Assembly: GCA_019326865.1 (NCBI GenBank)
Contig: GCA_019326865.1_4101.1
Strand: one strand, 5' to 3'
DNA from: a phage
DNA: 64,000 bases
In this document: one piece after another, positions 60,477 to 61,244 of the stretch
How the letters are laid out: every line of letters begins with the position of its first letter
How positions within the stretch are numbered: position 1 is the stretch's first letter
The notes under the pieces: generated by a model
What the model was told of the DNA's origin: nothing
Seen by the model: only the letters and a program-made list of their open reading frames with translations
Database searches by the model: none
Position numbers and translations under genes: made by a program

Positions 60477-60671
60477 ATGGCAGACAAAACATTTTATGAT
60501 CGTATTATTGAAGACAAGGGAGTTTTTGATAAGGTGGTTTATGACTTAGAACTTATGATCAAAGACGCACCAAATCCACGAGTACGAACACAAGCAGAAT
60601 TTGCAAAAACTTATCTTGTTCAAGTTCAAGCAATCTGTGAAGCAATTAAAAAACACAATGATAGAACTTGA
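60477..60671 (+). CDS. hypothetical small protein
   Basis: RBS ggag upstream; 64 aa. Confidence 0.4.
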   Translation: MADKTFYDRIIEDKGVFDKVVYDLELMIKDAPNPRVRTQAEFAKTYLVQVQAICEAIKKHNDRT

Positions 60672-60696
60672 CAGAACCAACGTTCTATCCTATAAT
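60668..60696 (+). promoter_or_regulatory. consensus sigma70 promoter TTGACA-N17-TATAAT
   Basis: ttgaca at 60668-60673, tataat at 60691-60696, exactly 17-bp spacer; upstream of the IF3-like gene. Confidence 0.7.
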
Positions 60697-60740
60697 TACT
60701 ATTGAACAAAACATTAAAATCATATTGGAGCTTTTATTAC

Positions 60741-61244
60741 ATGAAATCTATTATTGCCAATAACGAAATCACCGCAAAAACTGTCCGTTTGGTAACGGAA
60801 GGAACAAGTGAGGTCATGGCAATCTCTAAAGCATTAACTTTAGCAGAAAATCAAGGTTTGGATTTGGTGGTTATTGGTGCTGGTGATGAACCTGCTGTAA
60901 AAATTACTGATCTTAACAAATACAAGTACGAATTGAAACAAGCTGAAAAAGCATCTCTTAAAAAACAGCGACAAAACGCTATCAGTGTTAAAGAAATTCA
61001 ATTCAATTTTGGTACACATGAGCATGATTTGAAGATTAAAGCCAAAAGTGCTGAGAAATTTCTTGATGAAGGAAAACATGTACATATTGTAATGAAAACT
61101 TCAGGACGTGGAACTAATGCATCTGTAATTCAAGCTAATATTAATGCAATGGAATCATTCGTTAATCGTTTGGGTAACGTTTCATATGTTCAAAAAGTGG
61201 AGTTCCAAGGTAAGAAGGTAACCTGTACTGTCAAAGTAAAATAA
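60741..61244 (+). CDS. infC: translation initiation factor IF-3 homolog
   Basis: [10 protein letters not shown]...[13 protein letters not shown]...EPAVKITD...[21 protein letters not shown]...[19 protein letters not shown] aligns along its length with E. coli IF3 (EIRAQEVRL...AEEAGVDLVEIS...PPVCRIMD...[21 protein letters not shown]...FLEEGKKAKVTLRFRGRE). Confidence 0.8.

Follow-up and report, generated by a model that had tools for sequence, protein, structure and literature searches.

Initiation factor IF3 controls the choice of start sites and of initiator tRNAs. It permits ATG, GTG and TTG and represses other start codons, and the E. coli infC gene itself starts with ATT, allowing IF3 to repress its own synthesis (PMC5472188). 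The RFRGR motif of the protein is highly conserved and its R131 contacts the start codon; in E. coli IF3, the R131P substitution or the replacement of RFRGR by the mitochondrial KKGK relaxes the rejection of non-AUG starts and of leaderless mRNAs, and P, F or Y occupies position 131 in the mycoplasmas whose initiation is relaxed (PMC11775629). In addition, K110L is a non-binding mutant of the E. coli factor, and the substitution Y75N impairs both the dynamics of IF3 and the selection of start codons (PMC7145577).

IF3 is also encoded by large phages. Al-Shayeb et al. in 2020 listed IF1 and IF3 among huge-phage genes and read them as redirecting host translation (PMC7162821). The CBB paper of 2017 notes the gene, with homologs in GAP32, 121Q, PBECO4 and RaK2 (PMC5259590), Iyer et al. 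in 2021 counted IF3 and a KTSC protein among possible supporters of phage translation (PMC7824862), and the Sharanji paper of 2025 considers that the function of IF3 in phages "cannot be definitively stated" (PMC11895373). In the literature searched, we found no experimental study of any phage IF3.

We analysed a stretch of phage DNA of 64,000 nucleotides, hereafter the window. A preliminary description, made from the letters alone, had framed it as T4-like and had remarked that IF3 is not known as a standard T4-like gene. This framing has to be replaced, since the region of the window is 97.9% identical at the nucleotide level to Escherichia phage UE-S1 and about 93.5% identical to 121Q, PBECO4, phAPEC6, SP27 and Sharanji, all of them, like UE-S1, Asteriusvirus jumbo phages of about 350 kb. 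The source is an Asteriusvirus (Rak2-like) jumbo phage, strictly speaking outside the T4-type phages, and in the Rak2-like group IF3 is standard, syntenic and long annotated. Indeed, the GenBank records of close relatives label the gene "translation initiation factor IF-3", and orthologs with an IF3 annotation are found in 121Q (gp47), PBECO4, RaK2 (ORF153), GAP32 (GAP32_313), CBB (CBB_318), Sharanji (gp294) and UE-S1 (UE-S1_033). The window protein and the phrog_9787 profile align end to end (E 4.6e-70, aa 1-167 with positions 1-167 of the 168 in the profile). Far from being a new find, the gene adds one more member to a phage IF3 family already recognised and annotated for more than ten years (in RaK2, GAP32, 121Q and CBB), which has figured in reviews since about 2012-2017.

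A full-length IF3 under purifying selection

The coding sequence and its parts are as follows.

60741..61244, + strand: IF3 (infC-like) coding sequence, 167 aa, ATG start, TAA stop
60759..60953, + strand: IF3_N domain (PF05198), aa 7-71, net charge -3, predicted beta-beta-alpha-beta-beta
60912..60977, + strand: basic linker helix, aa 58-79, net charge +5, containing Y63, the equivalent of E. coli Y75
60981..61235, + strand: IF3_C domain (PF00707), the 30S-binding domain, aa 81-165, net charge +6
61095..61109, + strand: loop K119-T-S-G-R123, aligned to E. coli 129-RFRGR-133, with F130 and R131 lost

The ORF at 60741..61244 had been described as an IF3 homolog covering both the N- and the C-domain, and this identification is borne out by Pfam, by TIGR00168, by matches to PDB chains and by the predicted fold. 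IF3_N was recovered over aa 7-71 with an E value of 4.3e-16 (59.3 bits for a cutoff of 26.9) and IF3_C over aa 81-165 with an E value of 1.5e-13 (50.9 bits for a cutoff of 34.8). The NCBIfam equivalog TIGR00168 infC gave a full-length match (E 1.7e-31, 109.3 bits for a cutoff of 60), and the solved IF3 chains 8jsg_A (E 8e-17) and 5lmn_X were also matched. The best matches belong to the IF3 family. An AlphaFold model built with 25 homologs (pLDDT 84) has the classical IF3 topology with a long helix at aa 58-79; the C domain, which contains K100, the equivalent of E. coli K110, is predicted as beta-alpha-beta-alpha-beta-beta. When compared with 30S-bound IF3 (5lmn_X and 9ss1_F3), the predicted fold gave TM scores of 0.72-0.77, and the PDB matches obtained by Foldseek with E ≤ 0.001 are all bacterial or mitochondrial IF3 entries (21/21).

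Like bacterial IF3 (from E. coli, or from T. thermophilus in 5LMN and 8JSG), the phage protein has two alpha/beta domains joined by a long, basic and lysine-rich helical linker, with the same size and the same charge pattern (-3/+5/+6 for N domain, linker and C domain, versus -2/+6/+6 in E. coli). It differs from the E. coli protein, with which it shares 33% identity, by the lack of the N-terminal 12-residue extension and by a linker that is 2 residues longer between the equivalents of K72 and K95. In E. coli numbering, the residues R25, D69, K72, Y75, T102, D106, K110, G132 and R133 are kept, including the key residues that it has in common with bacterial IF3 (R25, Y75, D106, K110, G132 and R133), and R112, R116, R129 and R168 are conservatively replaced by K. 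Among the 28 members of the clade, the equivalent of K110 is K in 26 and that of Y75 is Y in 26. R99, Y107 and R147 are replaced, position 107 being L in the window protein versus Y or F in bacterial IF3. Mutagenesis of E. coli IF3 by Petrelli et al. in 2003 reportedly implicates these three residues in function. As regards the residues for 30S binding, which the preliminary description had singled out, the result is therefore divided: K110 and the linker Y75 are kept but the codon-inspecting motif RFRGR is degenerate.

The dN/dS ratio of the gene is 0.059 between the window and 121Q, 0.089 between the window and Ecwhy_1 and 0.115 between GAP32 and CBB; across the comparisons it ranges from 0.06 to 0.15, which corresponds to purifying selection, and the ORF is intact in the 11 phages compared. 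These values and the intact ORFs rule out a pseudogene or relic. By every sequence criterion, the gene appears to be functional.

In a profile search the phage clade scored at least 216 bits, followed by a gap and then by a plateau near 155 bits made mostly of Bacteroidota IF3. An exhaustive search returned 5,504 relatives forming a graded series with no close cellular source, indicating that the gene is an old viral resident and not a recent enterobacterial capture. The 33% identity to E. coli IF3 and the score gap to cellular IF3 likewise rule out a recent capture from the host. The orthologs from Rak2-like phages (121Q, PBECO4, RaK2, GAP32, CBB, Sharanji and UE-S1) show 49-98% protein identity; those of UE-S1 (98%) and 121Q (97%) differ from the window protein by a few residues and in nothing substantive. 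Full-length IF3 is also encoded by the Agrobacterium phage Atu_ph07 (gp001), by the Sinorhizobium phage Phosso and by uncultured huge phages that Al-Shayeb et al. described in 2020. The proteins of Atu_ph07 and Phosso are only 33-40% identical to that of the window but share with the Rak2-like clade a linker longer by 2 residues, an aliphatic side chain at position 107 and a neighbour from the Clp system. They differ from it by a GTG start and by the nature of this neighbour, which is a Clp ATPase, whereas the Rak2-like genes have an ATG start and a ClpS-like neighbour.

Promoter, gene order and proposed role

The gene is preceded by a promoter and surrounded by a conserved set of neighbours.

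60477..60671, + strand: small ORF, 64 aa, PHROG 15132, conserved, with its 3' end overlapping the IF3 promoter
60668..60673, + strand: -35 hexamer TTGACA, containing the TGA stop (60669-60671) of the small ORF
60674..60690, + strand: promoter spacer of 17 nt, with the inverted repeat AGAAC-N4-GTTCT at 60673-60686
60691..60696, + strand: -10 hexamer TATAAT, exact match
60727..60730, + strand: Shine-Dalgarno sequence GGAG, 10 nt upstream of the ATG
61258..61803, + strand: ClpS-like gene, PHROG 15940, 13 nt after the IF3 stop codon
61875..62420, + strand: KTSC-domain gene (Pfam KTSC, E 1.4e-13), third of the IF3/ClpS-like/KTSC trio

The promoter had been placed at 60668-60696 as TTGACA-17-TATAAT, and these coordinates are exact: the hexamers fit the consensus at 12 of 12 positions and lie 44 nt before the ATG, so that the span 60668-61244 covers the promoter, the 5' leader, the Shine-Dalgarno sequence and the coding sequence. 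Perfect 12/12 sites with a 17-nt spacing occur only twice in the 64-kb window; shuffling gives an expectation of 0.10, and two or more such sites did not occur in any of 100 shuffles. From sigma70 geometry, transcription would start near 60703-60704 and leave a 5' leader of about 37 nt. A TTG at 60702, which would give a protein of 180 aa, was rejected as an alternative start: it falls in the leader, after the -10 box and before the Shine-Dalgarno sequence, protein conservation does not extend to the region upstream, and ATGAA is the invariable start in the 11 phages compared.

In these 11 phages, the hexamers are 12/12 in seven (the window, UE-S1, 121Q, Ecwhy_1, Turkey5, SE_PL and CBB, the latter with a spacer of 16 nt), 11/12 in EJP2, where the -35 is still TTGACA and the site lies farther upstream than in the relatives, and 10/12 in RaK2 and GAP32, where the -35 is TTTACT and TTGACT, respectively. 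In XaC1, a Xanthomonas phage, the promoter is absent at IF3. In the phages that have it, EJP2 excepted, the promoter is found 34-44 nt upstream of the ATG, and GGAG precedes the ATG in 11 of 11 phages with a spacing of 10-13 nt. The spacer sequences are unrelated between genera while the hexamers stay in place, as one would expect of a sigma70-type promoter under selection. Within the spacer, the arms of the repeat are kept in the window, 121Q and Ecwhy_1 and the central 4 nt differ (CAAC, TAAT and ATTA). The promoter is probably real, judging from this pattern.

Expression driven by the host polymerase, as proposed in the preliminary description, can reasonably be deduced from the conservation of the promoter and from PA5oct, a related jumbo phage that relies on host RNA polymerase throughout infection (PMC7318152). 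The immediate-early timing proposed with it is no more than possible, since IF3 lies amid replication genes and other promoter-like boxes are found just upstream. No Asteriusvirus transcriptome was found in the literature searched, and the MEME-based supplementary promoter lists of the CBB paper have no entry for ORFs 316-319.

The order Dda helicase, ORF of about 190 aa, 64-aa ORF, IF3, ClpS-like gene, KTSC gene and virion protein is identical in UE-S1, 121Q, Ecwhy_1, Turkey5, RaK2, EJP2, SE_PL, GAP32, CBB, XaC1 and a metagenomic contig; the genera in this comparison are Asteriusvirus, Alcyoneusvirus (RaK2) and Mimasvirus (GAP32 and CBB). The metagenomic relative has this same order with an IF3 that is just 42% identical. 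IF3 is thus a syntenic core gene of the Rak2-like group, in which the gene order and the ATG start are as in the window and the promoter is the same in most members. Cellular infC, in contrast, has an AUU or AUC start and lies in a thrS-infC-rpmI-rplT context, whereas the phage gene starts with ATG between the Dda-helicase block and the ClpS-like gene. The latter, which matches Pfam ClpS (E 2.7e-5, 24.3 bits for a cutoff of 23), is probably co-transcribed with IF3. Virion packaging of IF3 was also considered and set aside: IF3 (CBB_318) is missing from the CBB virion mass-spectrometry table as retrieved, in which the KTSC protein CBB_320 is present.

The reading that we favour, and hold to be fairly probable, is that of a genuine IF3 which would bind the host 30S subunit, be expressed from a host-recognised promoter with an ATG outside autoregulation, and add to or replace the host IF3 activity. 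The full-length protein would bind the 30S subunit as the cellular factor does, with its basic C-terminal domain on the platform beside the P site and its acidic N-terminal domain tethered by the basic helical linker. Host sigma70 RNA polymerase would transcribe the gene from its own conserved consensus promoter, and the transcript would probably extend through the ClpS-like and KTSC genes. With its ATG start the gene should be blind to the AUU-based negative feedback that limits host infC, and the phage protein, if it retains discrimination, would even repress host infC. In the infected cell it would add IF3 activity and may progressively replace the host factor; this activity would keep 30S subunits free, recycle them after termination and clear RbfA and hibernation factors, and the phage would benefit through a faster formation of initiation complexes on its Shine-Dalgarno-led mRNAs. 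Host IF3 is already present in the infected cell, a point that we counted against a role in IF3 supply.

A degenerate start-codon-inspecting loop

The least expected feature of the protein is its degenerate loop, which is not discussed in the phage IF3 literature cited here. HMMER and MAFFT alignments concur that the equivalent of RFRGR is KTSGR in the window protein. None of the 28 members of the clade has F at position 130 or a K or R at position 131; these two positions are free to vary, whereas G132 and R133 do not change. F130 is invariant in the 102 cellular-like IF3 sequences compared, of which 67 have K or R at position 131 and 34 have V, A, I or Y, so that a loss confined to position 131 also occurs outside phages. 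In the closest uncultured relatives of the Rak2-like clade the motif has decayed further, as in KVIGR, KVTSS and RLSKA. Atu_ph07 and Phosso keep RFKGR and other huge-phage IF3 has FFKGR, indicating that the loss is specific to the Rak2-like clade.

Such a loop suggests that the phage protein may not reproduce the full proofreading function of IF3. It raises the possibility, which we regard as rather unlikely, of an altered-specificity factor that would bind the 30S subunit and block subunit association but fail to reject weak codon-anticodon complexes; made from an ATG start and in excess over host IF3, it would shift the rules towards unusual starts, leaderless or weak Shine-Dalgarno mRNAs and 70S-type re-initiation in packed operons. 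The clade-wide loss of both F130 and the basic residue at 131, with G132-R133 fixed, argues for it, as do the degenerate loops of the uncultured relatives and the intact RFKGR of Atu_ph07 and Phosso. The changes that relax start discrimination in R131P, in the KKGK swap taken from IF3mt and in mycoplasma IF3 affect this same start-codon-contacting loop; the phage loop K-x-x-G-R differs in sequence from all of these, and the protein is devoid of the terminal extensions of IF3mt. We take this likeness as a lead and not as a test. However, 34 of the 102 cellular-like IF3 sequences, a set that is mostly from Bacteroidota and closest to the phage profile, also have no basic residue at 131, so that this change by itself is not exotic, and Y75, the mutation of which also relaxes fidelity, is conserved.

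The initiation signals of the window speak against relaxed proofreading as well. Its genes have ordinary Shine-Dalgarno sequences and canonical starts, and in the intergenic gaps of more than 150 nt we found no signal of hidden non-canonical starts, the downstream frame being uninterrupted over no more than 66 nt ahead of the first canonical start, which is a weak test. The preliminary description had proposed that the phage copy retunes initiation, perhaps by favouring GTG and TTG starts. The general idea gains some substance from the degenerate loop but not through such a preference, which is not supported: IF3 treats ATG, GTG and TTG alike as canonical (PMC5472188), and the window gave no non-canonical-start signal. 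A co-evolution with a phage initiator tRNA was also rejected. No tRNA gene was found in the window, and the sole CAT-anticodon tRNA of the close relative Sharanji (90 nt, with a long variable arm and a G1-C72 pair) has an anticodon stem made of G-U, C-G, C-G, G-C and A-U; without three G-C pairs in this stem, it is not an initiator. On balance, we put forward only tentatively the idea of a natural re-tuning of IF3 in the Rak2-like clade, in which the factor, made outside autoregulation, would keep 30S binding and dynamics with a proofreading loosened or re-targeted toward phage messages. Under this idea, the conserved coupling to the ClpS-like adaptor could even correspond to a paired replacement of host factors.

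Other readings and significance

Less likely again, though compatible with the supply of a genuine IF3 and not exclusive of it, is a role in slow-growing hosts, where the phage protein would compete with hibernation factors and RbfA on 30S and 70S particles, so that ribosomes lying dormant in stationary-phase or cold hosts of gut and sewage would be freed for phage translation. Cellular IF3 displaces RbfA (notably in stationary phase, in the cold and with ppGpp) and competes with hibernation factors (PMC7145577), and the phage protein has conserved the two domains and the linker, all of which RbfA release requires. In addition, an S30EA/HPF-family protein was reported for Sharanji along with further translation factors (PMC11895373), suggesting that the state of the ribosome is a target of this phage group. 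The argument is nevertheless one of analogy, and the sequence does not separate this role from a general supply of IF3.

A defective protein that would sit in the IF3 site of the host 30S subunit, to shut off host translation or block a ribosome-targeting defence, is very improbable: many phage takeover proteins mimic host factors, and R99, Y107, R131 and R147 are replaced, but a pure blocker would stop phage translation too, the charge pattern and the fold are fully IF3-like, and purifying selection acts alike on the two domains and on the linker (Y75), as expected for a full dynamic cycle and not for simple occupancy.

Virus-encoded translation factors show the extent to which large phages reprogram the host ribosome. 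In the present case the interest would be confined to the function of the protein and to its degenerate codon-inspection loop. If the phage copy merely tops up IF3, it would be a modest accessory of host takeover. If the loop alters proofreading, it would be a natural tool for changing start-codon rules and a tractable model, with E. coli as host and cultivable phages. Were the IF3 of the Rak2-like clade indeed re-tuned, it would represent a viral rewrite of the rules of initiation and not a spare part.

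Promoter-like elements around the IF3 gene

We searched the window for the perfect TTGACA-17-TATAAT arrangement and found it only at the IF3 promoter and at one other site, which lies within coding sequence, about 190 nt 5' of the next ORF. When one mismatch or fewer is accepted, all the matches in the window (7/7) are on the + strand, which also carries 67 of the 73 crude ORF-based gene picks. Two more promoter-like elements were observed 5' of IF3, around a small ORF, and an inverted repeat is present in the spacer of the IF3 promoter itself.

44757-44785, +, second perfect TTGACA-17-TATAAT, inside ORF 44304..44981
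60449-60454, TATAAT box, about 22-28 nt 5' of the small-ORF ATG
60472-60500, promoter-like TTGACA-17-TATGAT, overlapping the start of the small ORF
60477-60671, +, small ORF of 64 aa, PHROG 15132
60673-60686, inverted repeat AGAAC-N4-GTTCT

The small ORF gave no match in a Pfam search and is kept in all Rak2-like phages examined; the TGA with which it ends forms part of the IF3 promoter's -35 hexamer. The TATAAT box is kept in Asteriusvirus, RaK2, EJP2 and SE_PL. Since it has no TTGACA at the correct spacing, it may represent a promoter of the middle or factor-dependent type. In the TTGACA-17-TATGAT element, the -35 hexamer falls within the gap separating the small ORF's Shine-Dalgarno sequence from its ATG, and the -10 hexamer is made up of the F-Y-D codons; 'cttgacATG', its -35 region, is conserved in 8 of the 11 phages compared. 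With these two additional elements, transcription of IF3 may begin at more than one site.

The arms of the inverted repeat are conserved in the window and UE-S1, 121Q and Ecwhy_1, the central 4 nt being variable (CAAC, TAAT, ATTA), and the repeat is not present in the more distant genera compared. It may act as an operator or may have arisen by chance.

IF3 matches and tRNAs in other records

The IF3 match in L016 (CAKLQF020000017.1, recorded as 'Acinetobacter phage MD-2021a') looks like bacterial sequence, judging from its thrS-infC arrangement and its E. coli-like RFRGR motif. Several very short 'phage' records matching IF3, among them Listeria phage LM 4-11-1 and Enterococcus phage IME_EF3, may be host DNA.

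In a relative, Escherichia phage Sharanji (locus L018), two tRNA genes were considered.

9374-9463 and 9471-9562, -, 'tRNA-Met(CAT)' and tRNA-Ser

The 'tRNA-Met(CAT)' is 90 nt long and has a long variable arm and an encoded CCA end; it is not an initiator, nor is it a normal elongator Met tRNA. The adjoining tRNA-Ser has the unusual anticodon ACT.

Genes flanking IF3

57486-59803, +, dihydrofolate reductase, RNase HI and Dda/PIF1-type helicase, 5' of the IF3 block
61258-61803, +, ClpS-like gene (Pfam E 2.7e-5; 24.3 bits, barely above the cutoff of 23)
61875-62420, +, KTSC-domain protein gene (Pfam E 1.4e-13)

RNase HI probably starts slightly downstream of the TTG at 57986. The module of dihydrofolate reductase, RNase H, helicase, IF3, ClpS-like, KTSC and topoisomerase genes is also found on a metagenomic contig (L019), whose IF3 is just 42% identical.

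The ClpS-like gene is directly 3' of IF3. Its product has an N-terminus longer by about 70 residues, and no sequence match to it was found in the PDB. In Atu_ph07 and Phosso, two unrelated jumbo phages, a Clp ATPase gene is directly upstream of IF3, as is a ClpC-like AAA+ gene on one bacterial contig; the pairing of IF3 with Clp genes is a recurring one (loci besides the window: L011 1-132, L012 1-114 and L021 3387-5924).

The KTSC-domain protein, encoded beside IF3, has a putative RNA-binding domain. Mass spectrometry detected its homolog in phage CBB, CBB_320, among the virion proteins (4 peptides, 37% coverage); the KTSC-domain protein may therefore be packaged in the virion.
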